Under the pieces are notes generated by a model. It ran no database searches. It had not been told where the DNA came from and saw only the letters and a list, made by a program, of their open reading frames with translations. From a virus (lineage: Duplodnaviria > Heunggongvirae > Uroviricota > Caudoviricetes): 35,583 nucleotides of DNA. This document shows, piece after piece, positions 25,091-35,583 of the stretch; the stretch's first letter is position 1, and each line of letters begins with the position of its first letter. The stretch is from positions 1 to 35,583 of IMG/VR virus record IMGVR_UViG_2711768048_000005. One strand, given 5' to 3'. The position numbers and the translations under genes are program-made.

Positions 25091-26995
25091 TTAGAACGAT
25101 GTTACCCAGCTACGGCCTCTATTTGGGCGTCTGGCGATGTTTTTACGTTGTGGTCGTGTGATTGGCTTAGTTTCTTCGATTTGCTCGTTAGATTGCGATT
25201 TAGGAGCTTCTACGGATTCTTCTGGTTCACGGTTCAAACTATCTTTGATGGCTTCGAGTTTTTCCCATGACATTTTATTGAGTACATGACGAGAAGCAGC
25301 ATAGGAATAAGCCAGGCAGTCCAACGCTTCGTTTCGTGTTTGTCCAACTTTTACCCAACGTGTGGTATTACCCTGCCGTTTCAACTGTTCAGAAAGCAAT
25401 TGCTCGCAATAGTCATCAGGAACGTCACCAATCTGGAAGACAGTGTGAGGATCGCCATCTCTCAAGTTCCGGTTAATCATTTCACGGATCATCGTTTTAA
25501 GGTTGTTTACGCCCAGAATTTTAAGGGTAAAACCACCCGTTCTTGTGTCTTTTACCGGAAGGATTGGTGCATCAACATTGCTTGCGCCTTTAATGGCGGT
25601 TAGATTTTGCCACCGACTACAGAATCGATAGATCACGTTTGTAGCTCGTCCGTTCGATGAGTCCACGAAAGCAGATAACATCGGGATTCGTTCACCGGAT
25701 CGGGTATAGAATTTAGCTTTCAGGAAGTTGTAAAGCTGGTTATATGCTGGTGATTCGTGGCGTTCGCAGTTCACATCATAGAATGATCGGTGATCAACTA
25801 CGCATAGCCCTTTACGAGAAATACCCAGCAAGGTAGATTCCAGACGGTCTTTTTGCTGGTCAACTCCACCTACCAGAGCCAGTACATCATCAGGAATATT
25901 GTCTAGGCTAATATCAGTTTTCAGCGTTTCCAGTTCGTCGGCTGTGCGATCTTCGTTAAGATCATCGAAGGTTTCACCGAGCACCACATTATAGAACGTT
26001 GCCAGCGACATATTCGCGTAGCTATCAGCAAAGTCCACCACACACGCACGGATAGAACTAAACGGAGACATAAGGCGGTTAGCATGAAAACCGATTACTT
26101 CCGCATTTGGTTCGGTGGCGACCCATTCCCCCTGAGCAACAGCACGGAGGCGATCTGGTTCTGACCAATCAGTTTCACATGACGGGCAACGGTAAACGGC
26201 TGTGTCTGGATTCGGCAGTGATTTACCATTGATTACATGCCAATCAAAGAATACTCTACTCCATTCCATTACGTGTTTGTGTCCGCAATGCTGGCAAACG
26301 ACGTGGTATTTTCTTTTATCCGAGAGTTCCCATTGTTGGTTTATCGCCCCATCCCGCGAAGTTGGAGTAGAAGCAATTACGATCCTTGCATCATCACCGA
26401 AAGTGGTTGCGCGTTGTTCCGCTAGCTGGATCGGGTTCCCTTCGTCTGACTCATCAGCCGCATCAACTTCATCCAGAATAATCAAAGGCAGTGTCTTACC
26501 GCGCAAGTGTGATGGACTGTTCAGCGACATGAAATACATGAATGATCCGTTACGAAGCTGAATAATCGATGAGTTGTTAACGGCATTGCGATCTGATTTG
26601 TCGGTGATCATCGCCTTTAATTCTGGGGTTGCCTCTAATACTGGCTTCACCTTACCCGCAATCCATGAGTTCAATTCTCGAACGTTCGCTTGCAAAACAC
26701 CGATATTAGTAGGGTTACTGGCGATCCTGTGAAAGATAATACCGTTTAGCACAAGAGTTTTACCCAACTGCGCCGAGCACTTTAGCACAATTTTTCGCCT
26801 ATCTTCGGTGATCGCGTCCATCATTCCACGTTGGAAGGGATGCAACTTAATTAGAGATCCGGCTTTAACACCATCGGTTGCAACTACATTAGCCTCTACC
26901 CATTCGCTAGGTTTCATCGTTTTAGGTGGGCGAATTGCCGCAGAGATATTTTTAAGAATCTTTTTTAATTTGGCCTTATTAGAAATCAGTTTCAT
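25091..26995 (-). CDS. terminase large subunit (GpA-like)
   Basis: 634 aa. N-terminal ATPase with Walker-A-like LKCSAQLGKT; Cys cluster CQHCGHKH...YRCPSCETD as in GpA-type terminases; C-terminal nuclease-sized region. RBS GAGGGT upstream. Confidence 0.85.
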   Translation of the reverse strand: MKLISNKAKLKKILKNISAAIRPPKTMKPSEWVEANVVATDGVKAGSLIKLHPFQRGMMDAITEDRRKIVLKCSAQLGKTLVLNGIIFHRIASNPTNIGVLQANVRELNSWIAGKVKPVLEATPELKAMITDKSDRNAVNNSSIIQLRNGSFMYFMSLNSPSHLRGKTLPLIILDEVDAADESDEGNPIQLAEQRATTFGDDARIVIASTPTSRDGAINQQWELSDKRKYHVVCQHCGHKHVMEWSRVFFDWHVINGKSLPNPDTAVYRCPSCETDWSEPDRLRAVAQGEWVATEPNAEVIGFHANRLMSPFSSIRACVVDFADSYANMSLATFYNVVLGETFDDLNEDRTADELETLKTDISLDNIPDDVLALVGGVDQQKDRLESTLLGISRKGLCVVDHRSFYDVNCERHESPAYNQLYNFLKAKFYTRSGERIPMLSAFVDSSNGRATNVIYRFCSRWQNLTAIKGASNVDAPILPVKDTRTGGFTLKILGVNNLKTMIREMINRNLRDGDPHTVFQIGDVPDDYCEQLLSEQLKRQGNTTRWVKVGQTRNEALDCLAYSYAASRHVLNKMSWEKLEAIKDSLNREPEESVEAPKSQSNEQIEETKPITRPQRKNIARRPNRGRSWVTSF

Positions 26996-27038
26996 GTAAT
27001 TACCCTCATTACGAAATATGAAGGTATTTATTAAATTG

Positions 27039-27066
27039 TTGATATTTTGATAAATACGGATATTAA
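27039..27066 (+). promoter_or_regulatory. candidate sigma70 promoter (TTGATA-16-TATTAA) for the repeat-containing gene
   Basis: Hexamer match only; it would place the transcript start very close to the SD, so weak. Confidence 0.25.
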
Positions 27067-27082
27067 GATTTAAGGGGGGTGT

Positions 27083-27196
27083 ATGCTAATTAATCAGCAA
27101 GAAAGAGATGAATTAGAATTAGCCTTGTCTTGTCTTGTCTTGTCTTGTCTTGTCTTGTCTTGTCTTGTACCGATCATGAATATCGTTTGCCAGTAA
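27083..27196 (+). CDS. leader ORF: ATG with strong SD reading through (CTTGT)9 and stopping out of frame (current OFF state)
   Basis: SD AAGGGGGG then ATG 27083. The frame passes through the repeat and ends at TAA 27194-27196 (37 aa). It is in a different frame from the 196-codon ORF. Confidence 0.35.
   Translation: MLINQQERDELELALSCLVLSCLVLSCLVPIMNIVCQ
27124..27168. repeat. perfect pentanucleotide tandem repeat (CTTGT)9
   Basis: 45 nt of nine uninterrupted CTTGT units read directly from the sequence. Confidence 0.95.
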
Positions 27197-27720
27197 AACA
27201 TAAGCACTTAAAGACTGATTACACAACATCTGGCTTTAGTCGTGAGGAAGCGAAAGAGATTTTAATAGAGTTTTACCGCGATAATGGTTATACAGACGTT
27301 CACAACTTCTTTAAGAAGCATAGAACATCACATACAGAGTTTCGGAGAGTCCGAGAATGGTTTGATTTTGATATCAAGCGTTATTATCGAGTGGATGACG
27401 GTCCAATCTATCGGTTGCAGTGGAAGCCGATCAGGGAAGTGCTTAAACAGAAGAGATTGAATCATGCCATTACACGCTATCGTAACGTGGCTTTCAAGAA
27501 AGGCTATGGTGATACAAGGGAATTGTTTGTAGAACTCGCTAACGTGCGATATAGCCACTATTACAGGAATCCTAAAGAGTTCTTCGAAGTGCTGCGCAAG
27601 GTTGATATTAGTCGGGGTACATATTATTCACGGTTGAAGAAGTACGGGATTAAGGCAGAGTTCTTTATGTCGGTTGACGATGGAGAACTTTTTCCGATAA
27701 AATGTAAGTCCTCTAAATAA
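27130..27720 (+). CDS. 196-codon open frame with no in-frame ATG (candidate phase-variable gene; basic, Tyr/Arg-rich product)
   Basis: Track ORF begins at a TTG inside the repeat. Its C-terminus shares a motif with the two small paralogues (27756-27980, 31052-31231). Confidence 0.45.
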   Translation: MSCLVLSCLVLSCTDHEYRLPVKHKHLKTDYTTSGFSREEAKEILIEFYRDNGYTDVHNFFKKHRTSHTEFRRVREWFDFDIKRYYRVDDGPIYRLQWKPIREVLKQKRLNHAITRYRNVAFKKGYGDTRELFVELANVRYSHYYRNPKEFFEVLRKVDISRGTYYSRLKKYGIKAEFFMSVDDGELFPIKCKSSK

Positions 27721-27722
27721 AG

Positions 27723-27980
27723 GTGAACATTCACTTTAATTTGGAGAAAATGACTATGACTACTAAAGCTACTCGCGGTCGCCCTGTCCGTTTTAATCGT
27801 GAACAACTGGCAGCGATTGTAAAAGCGTACTATCAAGCGCCGAAAGGTAAAGCCGAAAAAGAACAAGTATTGAGTGAACACGGTATTTCAATTGCTCAAT
27901 TCTACAAATCACTCCATAAAGTTGATTTGAAATTCTTTGTTCAGGTTGACGGTGAAATGGTAGAAGCAACAGGAATTTGA
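27723..27980 (+). CDS. small putative DNA-binding protein, paralogue A (likely start ATG 27756, 74 aa)
   Basis: RGRPVRFNREQLAAIVKAYY...GISIAQFYKSLHKVDLKFFVQVDGE aligns with the product of 31052-31231. Terminator follows. Confidence 0.5.
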   Translation: MNIHFNLEKMTMTTKATRGRPVRFNREQLAAIVKAYYQAPKGKAEKEQVLSEHGISIAQFYKSLHKVDLKFFVQVDGEMVEATGI

Positions 27981-27986
27981 TTCTCT

Positions 27987-28017
27987 AGGCCAATCCTTCG
28001 GGGTTGGCCTTTTTTTA
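27987..28017 (+). terminator. rho-independent terminator
   Basis: aggccaatcc-ttcg-gggttggcct followed by ttttttt. Confidence 0.65.
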
Positions 28018-28084
28018 TGCACATGCGCTTAAAGTTCAGCGCATCTATATTCTTCCGACAAATCCAAATCTGGATGCACCAAAT

Positions 28085-28109
28085 ACAAAAAGCCCCTGAA
28101 ATTCAGGGG
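28085..28109 (-). terminator. rho-independent terminator for the Rha-like gene
   Basis: gcccctgaa-a-ttcaggggc hairpin with a T-tract on the minus strand. Confidence 0.6.
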
Positions 28110-28117
28110 CAAAATTA

Positions 28118-28960
28118 TTACAGTCCGAAGACTTCCAGTGATCCAGCATTCTGACGAATCAGCAAAGCGGTATTATTGACGATTGCTCGCGAGTTATTCG
28201 GTTGTGGCAATTTCAAAGTTGCGGCTTTTTCTTCTTCAAGCAATCCGAGTTTTACAAGATGCGGGATAGCATCAGCAGTGAACTCAATCTGACCGTGTGC
28301 CGACATACGAGCGAACATATAGCCAGGAGGAAGCAGATCATAGCCTTTAGGCTTACCAGAAGCATCCAGACGACGCTCAAGAACACCAGCAGCACATAAA
28401 CCTTTCAGAATCATTTGTACCTTCGTAGAGCCTCGTTTTTCGCCTAATAAGCGGCTAAGACTGTGTGTGTCGATAGCTTTACGAACATGCAATTCAACCA
28501 GTTGTTTCTTTTCTTGAATCAGTTGTTCGTTTGCGGCTTCCAATTCCATTGCCTCACGAATCCAGTCGAGCTTAGTCATGTTTGCGTAAGGGTTGATTTG
28601 CTGAGAACGCAGTTTTTCATTTTCTTCTTTCAGTCGCTTCCATTCCTGAATAACAACCATTCGACGCTTAACATCGTAACCAGTGACAAGAGTCAGCGTC
28701 ATTTCTTCGTCTAAGTGATATACTGGTTCTTTAACAGCATATCCTAAGTTATTGATTCTCTCGACAAATTCAGTTTTGAGCTGATCGATAATACCTAAAG
28801 ATTCGTACATTTCGCGAATATCGCGCATTATATTGCTGTGCTTCTTATCGGTAAATTCAGCGATCTGACGAGAAGACATGGTCAGCGGTTTGGTGTTATC
28901 AACAACCAGAGACACAGAAGCAGTTTTAACAGCAGTATTCATAGTAGTAACAGTATTCAT
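28118..28960 (-). CDS. phage regulatory protein Rha-family (antirepressor-like)
   Basis: N-terminal segment LTMSSRQIAEFTDKKHSNIMRDIREM matches the conserved Rha-family N-terminal motif as I recall it. Confidence 0.65.
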   Translation of the reverse strand: MNTVTTMNTAVKTASVSLVVDNTKPLTMSSRQIAEFTDKKHSNIMRDIREMYESLGIIDQLKTEFVERINNLGYAVKEPVYHLDEEMTLTLVTGYDVKRRMVVIQEWKRLKEENEKLRSQQINPYANMTKLDWIREAMELEAANEQLIQEKKQLVELHVRKAIDTHSLSRLLGEKRGSTKVQMILKGLCAAGVLERRLDASGKPKGYDLLPPGYMFARMSAHGQIEFTADAIPHLVKLGLLEEEKAATLKLPQPNNSRAIVNNTALLIRQNAGSLEVFGL

Positions 28961-29050
28961 AGTAAAATCCCCCTTAAACGGTTTTGCGATTTAATCCTCC
29001 CTGTTCCGGCAGCATCACCGGAACAATTTTATTTATAAGAAGTTTTTATC

Positions 29051-29197
29051 TCATTTAGATTCAGCAATCGCGCGATCAATTTCTTCTTGAATGCGACGCT
29101 GGCGTTCATGGAAGTCAACCATTGAGAAATTCAGGTTTGGGGTCCACGGTTTGCGGTTCGGGTTTTTACGTCCATCAATTTTCTTAGTAGTGTTCAT
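29051..29197 (-). CDS. small basic protein (48 aa), speculative
   Basis: ATG with AGAGGG 9 nt upstream; product MNTTKKIDGRKNPNRKPW...; sits between a predicted promoter and the Rha-like gene. Below the track cutoff. Confidence 0.25.
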   Translation of the reverse strand: MNTTKKIDGRKNPNRKPWTPNLNFSMVDFHERQRRIQEEIDRAIAESK

Positions 29198-29255
29198 AAT
29201 TAACACCCTCTTTACAAATCTAGGTCAAGTAGGTTCAAAGTTGTCAAGTGCGATA

Positions 29256-29283
29256 ATCATAAAAAAGTCATAAAATTTGTCAA
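29256..29283 (-). promoter_or_regulatory. sigma70-like promoter on the minus strand (TTGACA-16-TATGAT) with flanking palindromic operator-like sites
   Basis: -35 TTGACA is the reverse complement of 29278-29283 and -10 TATGAT of 29256-29261. Flanked by TTGTCAA-N6-TTGACAA (29277-29296) and TAGGTCAAGT (29221-29230). Confidence 0.5.
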
Positions 29284-29318
29284 TACTCCTTGACAAGACG
29301 CCAAAGGGTTGACCTAAC

Positions 29319-29786
29319 TTACAGCATATCTAAGCCTTCGTCGTAACCGTAGAAGCCATTCTGAGAAGAGAAACAGATTGGTGCGTAGTCGTCGTCATCT
29401 TCGTCTTGTTCATCTTCTTCTGGGGCTTCCTGAGCGGTTTCTTTGCCGTAGTTAAACATTGCTTCATCCAGTTCATAGACAGTAACGAAGCTACCCAGAT
29501 CAATGTCACCGGAACGAACTTGAAACGGCAGATCATCACGAACAATAATTGCTGGTAGATTCTGGTACTTTAAGCGTTCTTCATCGGTGAAGACGTTAAC
29601 AACAATGGTCGGCTTCTTATTACGGCAAAACGCATACCATGCACTAGAGAAATGAGATTCATCAGAGTTGAAAAGAATGTTGTAACCACGTTCACGGAAC
29701 ATCTTCATTAACTTGTCATTGTGGAAGCTATCAGCATCAAAACCTAACAGGATGAAAGGAGTAGTGGTAGTCATTTTATGGTTCAT
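29319..29786 (-). CDS. hypothetical protein with acidic C-terminal tail (155 aa)
   Basis: Track ORF with RBS AGAGGA; C-terminus EEDEQDEDDDDY. No motif recognised. Confidence 0.45.
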   Translation of the reverse strand: MNHKMTTTTPFILLGFDADSFHNDKLMKMFRERGYNILFNSDESHFSSAWYAFCRNKKPTIVVNVFTDEERLKYQNLPAIIVRDDLPFQVRSGDIDLGSFVTVYELDEAMFNYGKETAQEAPEEDEQDEDDDDYAPICFSSQNGFYGYDEGLDML

Positions 29787-30361
29787 AGTGGAAATCCTCT
29801 AAAAGAAAGTGAATCAATCTAATATTATTTATAAAGAGAAAATTCTTGTTATTATGAAAAGAGTGATTGTATTCAGTCGGGCAAAGCCCTCCTTCATGAT
29901 TTGATTAAATCATCATCAAAACGAAGAAGTATCTTTAGAATATAAGAATCTTTCTTTTGGAGAAATAATAATAATCAGGAAGCAATTTAGCAACCGAAGG
30001 TTGCAATCCCGAAGGGATACCAATACCTTTCTAGAAAGTGATTGTTACTCACTTCGTTCGTTTACTAGAATCAGTTAGTAACTAGTATTAAATCCCTTTC
30101 TAAGAAAATCCTTTCAAAAGCGAGTGAACGCCGTAGGCGTGAACGTGAGCGAAGCGAACTATCCAATCCCTTTCGAATCCTGCTTGCAGGTCTTAGAAGG
30201 TGTTGATGGGCGCTTCGCGCACGGCTACGCCGTATTCTTTTTGCGAGATCTTTCTTGAACGTAGTGAGAGAAAACGAGCAAAAAGGAGAACGTTAGTTCG
30301 AATTTTATATTCTATGGTCTGTGGGGTGAAATGTCTTTCAAGATCATACAATTATGAGATT

Positions 30362-30486
30362 GAAGTGTAGGGTTAGTGTAGGTGTGTAGGTTTCATAGTG
30401 TAGGTTTGAGGGTGTTATAGTGTAGGTTTACTGGCTAGTGTAGTGTAGGCCAATCCCTTTAAAGCGTAGGTTTGTAGTGTAGGTTT
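30362..30486. repeat. iteron-like array: about 8-9 copies of (TA)GTGTAGG(TTT) at irregular 8-23 nt spacing
   Basis: GTGTAGG (one copy GCGTAGG) read at about 30365, 30376, 30384, 30398, 30420, 30442, 30465 and 30475, with a partial GTGTAG at 30437. Lies inside a 1.25-kb stretch with no ORF of 60 aa or more in any frame. Confidence 0.7.
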
Positions 30487-30680
30487 TTCATCAAAAATTT
30501 TGATAGAAAATCCTTGTGTATTATTTAACCGGAAAATCACCAAAAATCGCTGTAAATGCATGATTTAAAAAGAATTATCAAAAGGTCGCCGTGCTATAAT
30601 AGGTTATAAAGGTTGATAATCGTTATCCGCCATTTTCACATAAAAATTTTGATAGTCATTTCTCGCTTAGGTCAAGTGTA

Positions 30681-30709
30681 TTGACAACTGTCAAGGATTA
30701 TTTTATACT
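30681..30709 (+). promoter_or_regulatory. near-consensus sigma70 promoter (TTGACA-17-TATACT) overlapping a palindrome TTGACA-AC-TGTCAA
   Basis: Hexamers and spacing read directly. The same TAGGTCAAGT 10-mer (30668-30677) occurs at 29221-29230. Confidence 0.6.
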
Positions 30710-30844
30710 TTTTCTCTTTGATAGGGGTTGAAATTTTCGAAACAATCCCCATATTGATGATAAGCAAGATTTTTTCGTGTATAAATACATGCATGAAATG
30801 ATTGTTCACTTCTGAAAATCCCCTGATTCACTGTTAACACATAC

Positions 30845-30872
30845 GGCACTGGTTAAACATACAGTGCCTTTT
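30845..30872 (+). terminator. intrinsic terminator/attenuator in the leader downstream of the 30681 promoter
   Basis: ggcactg-gttaaacata-cagtgcc followed by tttt. Confidence 0.45.
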
Positions 30873-31036
30873 CGATTGAATAATGTACGAATTGATTAAT
30901 TATTAATCTTCTCTTTAGCAATTCGTGCTCCCACTGATCAGATATACAGTGGTTTTACAGGGTTTTCTGAAATGACTTTTATAAATAGAAGTATCGAGGG
31001 CGAAAAGCTCTTTTTATTGTCCTTATTAATCCACAT

Positions 31037-31231
31037 TTGAGGAATCTACTTATGGCTAGACCTGTTAAGTTTACTCGTGAAATGATTGTTGATATTGCTA
31101 AACGCTTTTATGGCGATACTGAACGAGGCGGCGAGAATTTCTTTAAGAAGGAAGGAATTGATAGAAGCGGATTCTATAAGCTAATGAAGAAATACGAAAT
31201 TCAGATAAAGATTAACGTTCAAGTTTGTTAA
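31037..31231 (+). CDS. small putative DNA-binding protein, paralogue B (likely start ATG 31052, 59 aa)
   Basis: MARPVKFTREMIVDIAKRFYG...GIDRSGFYKLMKKYEIQIKINVQV aligns with the product of 27756-27980. RBS GAGGA 8 nt upstream. Confidence 0.5.
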   Translation: MRNLLMARPVKFTREMIVDIAKRFYGDTERGGENFFKKEGIDRSGFYKLMKKYEIQIKINVQVC

Positions 31232-31347
31232 TCCACTTTCACTGAGAATTATATGATGGCTTTAAAAATAAAAAGCCTCCCTTGTTGCAGCAAAGGAGGC
31301 TTGAAATGAACAATTAAAACTAACACAGCATTCAGGAGTATTTATAA

Positions 31348-32349
31348 ATGAAAAATTCTAAGCGCATCACCTTCAACCTGTTTATTAAATCCAACGGCAA
31401 ACTGAACATTACCGTCATGGAAGGTAAAGCAAGCAAACAAGACAAATCCTTTGAAGTAGTATCCGGTAAGACTCTGACCGAAATGCGTCAGAATGCTGGC
31501 ATCAAAGACGGTGCTGAATGGCAGATCACTAACCGTTTCGACAAACGTCACGTTAAACCTACACTGGTAGAAGGTGAATCCGTTTATTGCTTCGCTCGTG
31601 CTGTTAAAGCCGATGAAACTTACTATCTCGCTGTTGTTAAAACTGCTTCCGGCTTCCGTGCTGTAATGCATCACAAGAGCAAGCGTAACGAATACGGCGT
31701 AGAGACCCAGGAAGTCGCAAAACGCTTCCGTACTGTTGCTACTGAATCCACTGTAAAGGATGTTTCTGGTACTGTTAACACCGCTAAAGGCGGTTCCTTC
31801 TACAACCACGCATTACAGGTTACTTCCTCCTTCTTCTGCAAAAAAGAAGCACAGAAAGAAGTTGCTCCGGTAGTAGTTGAAGAAGTTAAAGAAGAAGTTG
31901 CAGTGGTTGAATCTTCCGAAGTTGAAGCACTGAAAGCACGCATTGCTGAACTGGAAGCTGAAAACGCATCTCTGAAAGCTGAACTGGCAGCGCAGGAAAC
32001 CACTTTCGAAGTAGCAGCGGTTGAAGTTGAAGCAGTTGAAGAAAAATCCATTGATGAAGAACTGGAAGAACTCCTTAACTATCGCTGGGGTAACGGTGAA
32101 AAAGTAGAACAGGAAGAACAGAAAGAAGCTGATCCGGTAGTAGTTCCGGTTGAAGAAAAATCCGCACCTGTTACTAACTTTGAATCCCTGCGCAATAACT
32201 TTATGGCTAAATTCAAAACCACTTGGGAAGATACCGAAGAAGAACAAGAAGAGATTGAAGTAAACGAAGACGAGATCCGCGAAGCACAGATGGCACTGCA
32301 TGACGCTATCTACGACACCAACTACAGCGCCTACGCATACGCAGCTTAA
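31348..32349 (+). CDS. hypothetical protein, basic N-terminal domain plus long acidic coiled-coil C-terminal half; strong codon bias
   Basis: 333 aa with RBS AGGAG. Codon choice (cgt, ggt, ctg, tcc, acc, gaa, aaa) looks like highly expressed E. coli genes, unlike its neighbours. C-terminal half is E-rich. Confidence 0.6.
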   Translation: MKNSKRITFNLFIKSNGKLNITVMEGKASKQDKSFEVVSGKTLTEMRQNAGIKDGAEWQITNRFDKRHVKPTLVEGESVYCFARAVKADETYYLAVVKTASGFRAVMHHKSKRNEYGVETQEVAKRFRTVATESTVKDVSGTVNTAKGGSFYNHALQVTSSFFCKKEAQKEVAPVVVEEVKEEVAVVESSEVEALKARIAELEAENASLKAELAAQETTFEVAAVEVEAVEEKSIDEELEELLNYRWGNGEKVEQEEQKEADPVVVPVEEKSAPVTNFESLRNNFMAKFKTTWEDTEEEQEEIEVNEDEIREAQMALHDAIYDTNYSAYAYAA

Positions 32350-33260: not shown

Positions 33261-33307
33261 TAGACGTTGACCATCAACATCTTTCATACATTTATTTATA
33301 ACGCGTT

Positions 33308-33862
33308 TTAAGACACATCAAATTCATCGTCTTCTTCTGGTTCTTGTTCCGGTTCATCCATTAATGGTAATTCTTCTTCCTCGTCTTCTCCCAAATCAGC
33401 ATTTTCGAACAAGTCCCCTACTTCATTTAAACGACGCTCGATGATCTCCCTTAGCTTATTCTTCAATGTTTTCTGATCGGTAGCAGATTCGAGAATTTCT
33501 AAAGCATCGATCGTACAAATCTGCAAGATAGTCTGCTTCACCTTCCCACAATATTCAGCTAGCTCCTGTTCTACATAACCGACCGGAATCAGGAGGTTCA
33601 TCGCTTCCTGGTTCTCTCGTTCGGCTGCATCTGCTAAAGCACGTTCACGGCGTAATTTCTCTACATCGATTTGTTCTTTGATAGAAGTTTGTTTAAGCGG
33701 GTTGATAATATTTTTCAAGACCCATTCTGTTCCTTCTTTGGCTGGCACGCGGCGGGTATTGGTGTTAAATGGCAATCCCCTTTCTATCCATCGCTTAGCG
33801 CCACCATTCAATGAATAGCCGTATAAACGGGAAATTTCTGTAAGGGTTAATTCTTCTTTCAT
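33308..33862 (-). CDS. terminase small subunit candidate (Nu1-like HTH protein)
   Basis: 184 aa. N-terminal HTH-like segment (LTLTEISRLYGYSLNGGAKRWIERGLPF), central EKLRRE motif and acidic C-terminus, matching lambda Nu1 architecture as I recall it. Unusually, it is 6.3 kb from the terminase large subunit. Confidence 0.5.
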   Translation of the reverse strand: MKEELTLTEISRLYGYSLNGGAKRWIERGLPFNTNTRRVPAKEGTEWVLKNIINPLKQTSIKEQIDVEKLRRERALADAAERENQEAMNLLIPVGYVEQELAEYCGKVKQTILQICTIDALEILESATDQKTLKNKLREIIERRLNEVGDLFENADLGEDEEEELPLMDEPEQEPEEDDEFDVS

Positions 33863-35232: not shown

Positions 35233-35583
35233 TTATTTTGGGTTGACTACATTCGGGTTGCCAATTCGCCTGGCTAACTCTTGCTGAGTGATTTCTGACT
35301 GTAAAAAAGCATTTAACAGCAATACCTTAGAGGCGACGCTCAAAGGTACTTCAATAAAGTGATCGTGACTATTTAATGGCGAAGGTAAAGGGATAAGCTC
35401 GTTATCTTCAAAATAAAAATCAAATGCGGTCAGTAAAGCATCTTTTGCCGCTTCCATCGCTTCAGCGACAGTTTCGCCCTGGGTCAACGCTTCAGGGATA
35501 TCCACAAAAGAAACCATATAACCGCCTTCCGGCGCGGGTGTAAGAGTGACGGGATAACGCATAATTTCGACTGTCTCTCGCAT
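35233..35583 (-). CDS. hicB: HicB antitoxin, 3'-truncated at the prophage junction (host gene; real start MRYPV at about 35562)
   Basis: Translation MRYPVTLTPAPEGGYMVSFVDIPEALTQGETVAEAMEAAKDALLTAFDFYFEDNELIPLPSPLNSHDHFIEVPLSVASKVLLLNAFLQSEITQQELARRIG matches E. coli HicB as I recall it, then diverges into NPNVVNPK-stop at about codon 101. Confidence 0.75.
   Translation of the reverse strand: MRETVEIMRYPVTLTPAPEGGYMVSFVDIPEALTQGETVAEAMEAAKDALLTAFDFYFEDNELIPLPSPLNSHDHFIEVPLSVASKVLLLNAFLQSEITQQELARRIGNPNVVNPK

Follow-up and report, generated by a model that had tools for sequence, protein, structure and literature searches.

Three related small proteins of a predicted helix-turn-helix class in an uncharacterised lineage of enterobacterial prophages

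The IMG/VR virus record IMGVR_UViG_2711768048_000005 (Caudoviricetes), analysed here over its whole length of 35,583 nucleotides (the window), corresponds to a ~35-kb prophage of a type in which every gene of the control region is annotated as hypothetical. Three of these genes, referred to here as A, B and C, encode small proteins that an earlier sequence-only reading had grouped as a three-member family of putative DNA-binding proteins lying next to repeated operator-like sites. Are the three proteins really related, to what class do they belong, and what might they do for the phage? We consider it highly probable that A, B and C form one paralogous family of helix-turn-helix (HTH) DNA-binding proteins. 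Their relationship is documented by alignment statistics and by profiles built from each gene independently, and the class of the domain by remote profile comparisons and structural models. The repeats noticed in the same region, in contrast, track a different protein, R, encoded immediately after B.

Four copies of one domain in three proteins

In BLASTP comparisons, A and B are 33% identical across 58 amino acids (aa) (E 5e-9), and B matches both the C-terminal half of C (residues 129-182, E 1e-6) and its N-terminal half (residues 36-83, E 2e-4); A against C gives E 0.008. Smith-Waterman scores set against 2000 shuffles correspond to z values of 12.6 for A-B, 9.1 for B-C2, 7.0 for B-C1, 6.8 for A-C2 and 4.2 for A-C1, C1 and C2 being the two domains of C. 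The real score was never reached by a shuffle in the first four comparisons, and was reached by 4 of the 2000 in the last. A non-circular test, in which a hidden Markov model (HMM) made from the orthologues of one gene only was run on 507 six-frame pieces of the window, led to the same result. The A-only HMM recovered B at E 1.2e-8 and C at 1.2e-7, with the next piece at 0.9; the B-only HMM recovered A at E 1e-9 and C at 7e-7, with the next piece at 0.4; and the C-only HMM recovered B at E 3.8e-8 and A at 6.9e-6. The alignment between the products of A and B that had been noticed by the sequence-only reading thus reflects true paralogy, and the motif it had picked out in the C-terminus of the 196-aa open reading frame (ORF) of C belongs to the same family. 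Its count of three members holds for the genes but not for the domain, which is present in four copies because C carries it twice, one of the two having been overlooked. No fifth copy was found within the window by the family HMM.

AlphaFold2 (AF2) predicts the same helix-hairpin unit in A and twice in C. In the model of A (16-sequence family alignment; predicted local distance difference test score [pLDDT], 78), helices at residues 15-27, 32-41 and 46-55 are followed by a beta-hairpin at 61-70. The 183-aa model of C (pLDDT, 75) consists of two such units with a helical linker between them, the first with helices at 25-39, 44-50 and 55-65 and strands at 69-75 and 80-83, and the second with helices at 117-129, 135-144 and 149-158 and a strand at 163-169. 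All three proteins are basic (pI ~9.5). A short arm precedes the domain in A, where it reads RGRP and is invariant across alleles, and in B, where it is usually ARP (AKP in one allele and ART in another); the domains of C do not have it.

An exhaustive HMMER profile search of 1.84 billion cluster representatives returned just 34 proteins. Of the matches outside the family that were run through Pfam, almost all were multi-repeat proteins called HTH_Tnp_1, HTH_23, HTH_28 or HTH_7, and the best fold match in BFVD was an IS3-type transposase. With hhalign, A2 aligned to HTH_Tnp_1-type repeats with a probability of 97.7% (E 2.5e-12), and HTH_7-type repeats bearing GRPS arms gave 93.4%, the comparators having in both cases been picked from the matches of the family's own profile. 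Judged from these profiles and models, the domain falls within the common transposase/resolvase-type HTH class, as a divergent branch that is not curated and that has an added C-terminal hairpin; it is not a new fold. A, B and C are, on the same grounds and in keeping with their basic pI, very probably DNA-binding, as the sequence-only reading had proposed. Its remark that it did not recognise the family is fair insofar as no curated family detects A, B or C, although the class from which they branch is a very common one.

Two members of that class are particularly close in layout. The HTH of the OrfA/InsA proteins of IS3-type insertion sequences (IS) (HTH_Tnp_1, PF01527) is likewise a small basic three-helix domain following a basic arm, with the same F-x-x-E start of helix 1 (RPVKFTRE here, KxRFSxE in HTH_Tnp_1). 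OrfA/InsA proteins are small promoter-proximal repressors. A, B and C differ from them in lying below the Pfam gathering threshold, in having no DDE transposase or IS ends adjacent to them, in their extra C-terminal beta-hairpin and in being fixed phage core genes. The C-terminal domain of Hin and the resolvases (HTH_7, PF02796) has in common with A (RGRPVRF) and B (ARPVKF) a G-R-P arm directly before the three-helix HTH; in Hin, an arm of this kind stands before helix 1. A and B (74 and 59 aa), however, stand alone without a serine-recombinase catalytic domain, have no Pfam match and carry the extra hairpin. The bipartite HTH regions of Tc3 transposase, CENP-B and the paired domain also count among the closest known systems.

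Gene models, conservation and the B-R module

Table 1. Positions in the window of the genes, domains and control elements discussed in the text
Feature	Position	Strand	Basis or remark
Gene A, 74 aa, one predicted HTH domain, N-terminal RGRP arm	27756-27980	+	ORF; Shine-Dalgarno sequence GGAG at 27743-27746
Gene B, 59 aa, one predicted HTH domain, first gene of the B-R operon	31052-31231	+	ORF
Gene C, conserved N-terminal peptide and two tandem predicted HTH domains	27083-27720	+	Full-length orthologues of 194-207 aa
C domain 1, predicted HTH and hairpin	27199-27426	+	Family HMM, 105.8 bits; B vs C1, E 2e-4
C domain 2, predicted HTH and hairpin (copy seen in the sequence-only reading)	27463-27708	+	Family HMM, 93 bits; B vs C2, E 1e-6
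(CTTGT)9 tract, 5' end of C	27124-27168	+	TRF
Divergent TerL/C control region, 87 bp	26996-27082		Proposed target of C and/or A
Outward-facing ATAAATAC boxes	27024-27031; 27050-27057	-; +	
Intrinsic terminator closing the C-A transcription unit	27987-28018	+	10-pair stem, then T run
Seven GTGTAGG(TTT) iterons (operator-like sites of the sequence-only reading)	30365-30483	+	
Near-consensus sigma-70 promoter, TTGACA-17-TATACT	30681-30709	+	Promoter scan, 11/12 matches
TATAAATA box, then terminator-like hairpin, directly upstream of B	30980-31020	+	
R (p333), acidic coiled-coil protein, after B	31348-32349		313-339 aa across loci
Large serine recombinase/integrase	1488-3182		Resolvase, Recombinase and Zn_ribbon_recom domains
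M15-type endolysin candidate	3717-4070		
gpA-type large terminase TerL	25091-26995	-	
Nu1-like small terminase TerS	33308-33862	leftward	phrog_57, E 1e-11

The start of A is most likely ATG 27756, which gives the MTTKATRGRP beginning of its orthologues, rather than GTG 27723. For B, whose ORF extends from 31037, the best start is ATG 31052, and the N-terminus is then the arm itself, MARPVKFTRE. The model of C needs correction. Its 196-aa ORF in the window runs from 27130 to 27720, while the orthologues of C begin with MLINQQERDELELALSC, corresponding to ATG 27083, which is preceded by a strong Shine-Dalgarno sequence (AAGGGGGG); a profile of the C orthologues matched the N-terminal 17 aa in this other frame (piece 27074-27193, E 2.5e-6). 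Owing to the (CTTGT)9 tract, the body of C is not in the reading frame of ATG 27083, which stops at 27194-27196; the copy numbers that keep the frame are 2, 5, 8 and 11. Because the orthologues start at ATG 27083, in another frame and upstream of the tract, the MSCLVLSCLVLSC start of the 196-aa ORF (“MSCLVLSCLVL...”) is artefactual: this N-terminus is read-through of the repeat, not protein sequence.

Two copies of CTTGT are found in most relatives, as against the nine of the window. Elsewhere there are seven copies in loci L055 (9379-9413), L063 (4105-4139) and L064 (826-860) and six in L065 (826-855), and every expanded allele (five loci, the window included) is out of frame. Escherichia coli PI7 (seven copies) and E. 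coli 24AR0357 (six copies) encode an identical downstream protein, their tracts differing by a single copy. The tract may be a slippage-prone phase switch or else a sign of prophage decay.

The surroundings of the three genes are stable. TerL (leftward), C, A, a set of variable leftward genes (usually Rha), 1.2 to 1.45 kb of non-coding DNA, B, R and TerS (leftward) follow one another in this order in 29 IMG/VR contigs as well as in divergent E. coli and Proteus prophages. Ratios of nonsynonymous to synonymous substitution rates (dN/dS) of 0.05-0.28 across A, B and C (0.08-0.28 for A alone) indicate that the genes are under purifying selection. The alleles themselves are mosaic, with A in classes of 100%, 70% and 60% identity, B in at least four classes and TerL in classes of 96% and 58%. 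Among alleles of A only 60-70% identical overall, the arm and the recognition helix are invariant. The MARPVKFTRE beginning is likewise identical in the B orthologues aligned, including one from a T4-like phage described below, a few other alleles having single conservative changes. Nearly all prophages have intact copies of both A and B.

The operator-like repeats beside which the sequence-only reading placed the paralogues, as parts of a diversified regulatory module, are unlikely to be operators of this family. The repeats in question are iterons of the GTGTAGG type, a sequence that occurs 10 times in the window (1.9 expected), with a cluster of 7 at 30365-30483. The type of repeat matches the type of R in 27 of 27 loci: all eight loci with an R2 protein (the type of p333) have 6-9 GTGTAGG and zero TCAGGGGCA, all 16 with R1 have 4-8 TCAGGGGCA, and those with R3 or R4 have neither. 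The alleles of B are shuffled relative to both the repeats and R, despite the B gene sitting between the two. Since the repeat type follows R and the B alleles do not, the iterons are best assigned to R rather than to the HTH family. A common N-terminal domain of ~115 aa is found in R2, R3, R4 and the R of the T4-like phage, and a common C-terminal motif, LHD-x-x-Y-x-TN-[YF]-S, in R1 and R2. R has no recognisable Rep or HUH motif and no family match, and a homologue search with its N-terminal domain returned near-identical fragments only. As far as these comparisons go, R is probably an iteron-binding, initiator-like protein outside known families.

To the left of the iterons, the segment 29940-30345 is non-coding, with no ORF and no Rfam family, and hairpin-rich (z=-4.3 as single-stranded DNA), with C-GAA-G triloop hairpins, GCGAAGC among them, and possibly represents the single-strand or unwinding portion of an origin. 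To their right, the promoter at 30681 overlaps the palindrome TTGACA-AC-TGTCAA and is conserved in the loci of leader type I. The ensuing leader (30710-31025, ~310 nt) is conserved, runs toward B, folds with z=-4.2 and has a terminator-like hairpin at its end; it could be a non-coding RNA, an attenuator or a put-like element. Rfam gave nothing at gathering thresholds over the whole window, nor at E below 1 over 29750-31100. Hairpins at the same position precede the B-like genes in type-II leaders, in the T4-like phage and in locus L061.

B and R are adjacent at all loci, and they also occur together beyond the prophages. In L059, a T4-like metagenome contig of 168 kb, a 64-aa homologue of B (MARPVKFTRE...) is encoded between homologues of gene 3 and gene 2, which adjoin in T4 itself. 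The cassette (L059 4900-6625) is laid out as in the prophages: GC-rich hairpins and about ten AGCGATTAC iterons are followed by a promoter and a terminator-like hairpin, then by the B-like gene and by an R-like gene, the product of which matches p333 at E 3e-10 and the Proteus R at E 3e-16. It does not correspond to the oriE/repEA/repEB of T4, which are 45-50-aa ORFs antisense to gene 5 and located elsewhere. In a weaker third case, L061, a B-like gene is accompanied by a hairpin and by a gene for a coiled-coil protein. This recurrence of the hairpin-iteron-B-R module in a T4-like phage links B functionally to R and to repeat-bearing DNA. With its position there between gene 3 and gene 2 homologues, it also suggests a DNA-binding module, and a possible origin, that is apparently transferable from one phage to another, temperate and virulent alike.

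The arrangement recalls the copG-repB operon and double-strand origin of plasmid pMV158; plasmid cop-rep operons adjoin origins. Both have a hairpin-rich region, direct repeats, a promoter, a gene for a small regulator and a gene for a repeat-specific protein, represented here by 29940-30345, 30365-30483, 30681, B and R, respectively. They differ in that CopG is a ribbon-helix-helix protein and B a predicted HTH protein, and in that R has no Rep/HUH motif, the replication function being putative.

Proposed regulatory roles and their alternatives

Where might the three proteins act? The control region between the divergent TerL and C genes is near-invariant in 28 of 30 loci, even with TerL only ~58% identical. 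Its two ATAAATAC boxes lie ~26-30 nt from the start codons, and both are kept in Proteus though the spacer between them diverges. A 16-nt sequence of the same region, AATAAATACCYTCATA (27017-27032), recurs exactly at 4448-4463, again on the minus strand, before the endolysin-containing operon. The two copies lie 23 nt and ~22 nt, respectively, upstream of the start codons of TerL and of that operon, and AATAAATACCYTCATA is a candidate late-promoter element. Its core resembles the T4 late promoter, TATAAATA. Seven TATAAATA boxes were found against 2.4 expected, a number equalled by 1 of 100 shuffles. Six of them cluster at 29-33.3 kb (29030-29037, 29826-29833, 30780-30787, 30980-30987, 31339-31346 and 33293-33300), mostly preceding genes (Rha, p155, B and the TM56 gene) in sense orientation, and these positions are conserved in divergent prophages of E. 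coli and Proteus (L056 and L058). None of the TATAAATA, ATAAATAC and AATAAATACCYTCATA boxes has a good -35 element. This would fit dependence on an activator, for which C and A would by their position be the obvious candidates. TerL needs a promoter of its own because TerS is 6.3 kb away and behind terminators, its transcription unit ending at those near 32.6-32.7 kb.

The explanation that we tentatively prefer for the whole is that A, B and C are the phage's sequence-specific transcription regulators. The (G)RP arm of A and B would probably lie in the minor groove, by analogy to Hin. B, which comes first after a strong early promoter, the structured leader and the terminator-like hairpin, would regulate the operon to which it and R belong, in the manner of a small Cop/Cro-like repressor of a rep operon, R being the putative iteron-specific protein of the origin-like module. 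C and A form one transcription unit that diverges from the terminase/late operon; they would act on the 87-bp TerL/C region with its ATAAATAC boxes and control either the late (TerL, lysis) promoters or their own. These specific roles of B and of C/A are in themselves doubtful. A purely functional analogy is offered by Mor and C of phage Mu, the paralogous small HTH activators of its middle and late promoters: in both phages, such paralogues would plausibly serve promoters lacking a good -35 element. C and A of the prophage adjoin the late operon, and any activating role would be putative; no sequence relationship is detectable, the Mor model (PF08765) matching none of A, B and C and being touched by one distant multi-HTH protein only. 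A role of C as maintenance repressor is unlikely because C is frameshifted in stable prophages. In its boldest form, the proposal would have one HTH family run the whole of development in place of CI, Cro and Q, with (CTTGT)n as a reversible ON/OFF switch for entry into late expression and hairpins, iterons, B and R as a self-contained origin cassette mobile between temperate and T4-like virulent phages. Taken jointly, these conjectures are quite improbable.

Several observations weigh against regarding the three proteins as HTH regulators with these roles. DNA binding, targets and direction of regulation are all inferred. Pfam finds no family for A and B at E up to 10 and only a sub-threshold Phage_HCP for C, the PHROGs scan of all three gives nothing significant, and a sequence profile search of the PDB yields noise only. 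The hhalign probabilities are inflated, because the comparators were selected by the same family profile. C is out of frame in the window and in four other loci and is therefore dispensable for prophage maintenance. No covariation was found of B alleles with leader, iteron or R type, so that no operator can be assigned to B, and none of A alleles with their neighbours. The TATAAATA and ATAAATAC boxes, finally, may be ordinary AT-rich -10 elements.

Of the alternatives, the one that survives best, though rather unlikely, is that the proteins bind DNA without regulating transcription, B being an accessory or architectural aid to R at an origin and C and A aiding packaging or cos recognition. The link between B and the iteron-R module holds even in the T4-like phage, and the hairpin-rich segment 29940-30345 is origin-like; the iteron type, however, tracks R and not B. 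For packaging, C and A abut TerL, the same HTH class is found in small terminase subunits, and Sf6_terminase is among the Pfam matches of a distant relative. Yet the position of small terminase is already filled by the Nu1-like TerS, which also excludes A, B and C as TerS themselves (none of them matches the TerS families of Pfam and PHROGs). The GC-rich, cos-like region adjoins TerS and not C/A, and C is frameshifted in several otherwise intact-looking prophages.

A lysogeny (immunity) repressor is a second alternative, and a distinctly unlikely one: one of the three proteins, most plausibly A or B, would act at the TTGACA palindromes or GTCAAG repeats of the promoters at 29283 and 30681. These two strong early promoters, leftward and rightward, respectively, have in common a 28-nt element with GTCAAG-N13-GTCAAG and TTGACA-containing inverted repeats (29221-29297 and 30668-30695), which are candidate operators for a repressor. 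No CI-like repressor was recognised among the ORFs scanned, and A and B, as said, are rarely disrupted. However, B lies beyond a terminator and downstream of one of the two promoters that it would need to repress, a position that is Cro-like rather than CI-like. The alleles of A do not covary with leader or promoter type, the frameshifts speak against C, and none of the three proteins matches the HTH_3 or Phage_CI_repr models (Pfam, PHROGs). Immunity could equally be RNA-based, the non-coding region being long and structured.

It is very improbable that A, B and C are excisionase-like recombination directionality factors (RDFs) for the serine integrase. Small basic HTH or winged-helix proteins are often Xis proteins or RDFs, and the prophage has a serine integrase and no annotated RDF, but the genes are 24-28 kb from int and have no match to the HTH_17/Xis model (Pfam), and B also occurs in a T4-like genome of virulent type, where no integrase lies close to it. 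Known serine-integrase RDFs, moreover, mostly bind the integrase and not DNA. Scarcely credible, lastly, is the view that the similarity of these short, lysine-rich proteins is due to chance or composition, or that the ORFs are functionless, decaying remnants of IS-element OrfA genes (as their nearest recognisable relatives, transposase HTH domains, and the frameshift of C in the window could suggest), for it is refuted by the alignment statistics (z up to 12.6, the A-B score reached by no shuffle, and independent profiles finding one another at E 1e-9 to 7e-7) and by conservation (synteny kept from E. coli to Proteus, and the low dN/dS), and no transposase ORF or IS ends adjoin the three genes, whose neighbours are TerL, Rha and R.

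The prophage and its hosts

A, B and C belong to the core genes of a temperate phage lineage of Enterobacterales that is uncharacterised and has genomes of ~35 kb, a serine integrase and a gpA-type terminase. The family is limited to Enterobacterales, namely E. coli, Shigella, Salmonella and Proteus, all its members being annotated as hypothetical, and the region is present in 58 of 5426 complete E. coli genomes (~1%). Neither tblastn of A and of the B and R of the T4-like phage against 50,697 phage records nor megablast of the region against phages yielded a match, and the patterns of A or B gave no confirmed locus in the GTDB species-representative genomes. The proteins themselves probably have a conventional biology. 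They represent a real, conserved and unnamed family of a familiar kind, probable regulators in an unstudied group of prophages. To see the three proteins as a single HTH family, one missed by Pfam and PHROGs, provides a first handle on regulation in this lineage, to which the correction of the C model and the attribution of the iterons to R also contribute.

The integrase contains the sole resolvase domain in the window. TerL is followed by portal, protease-capsid and tail genes. No replication genes were recognised elsewhere in the prophage, and no Cro or Q homologue among the ORFs scanned. TerS and TerL are separated by 6.3 kb of DNA in which Rha, the origin-like non-coding region and the B-R operon are found, an unusual layout for a lambda-type packaging module.

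A truncated gene for a PHP-domain protein, ycdX, which lies beside ghrA, adjoins the right prophage end in relatives from E. coli and Proteus (L001 14262-14666; L058 15087-16285); this suggests that insertion is site-specific, into ycdX; a literature search for ycdX as an integration site found nothing. A HicB-like gene (35233-35583) occupies the right edge of the window. The 155-aa protein p155, encoded at 29319-29786 on the minus strand, has a very acidic C-terminal tail and no family match. It occurs in two allele classes, ~95% and ~60% identical, which assort independently of their neighbours.

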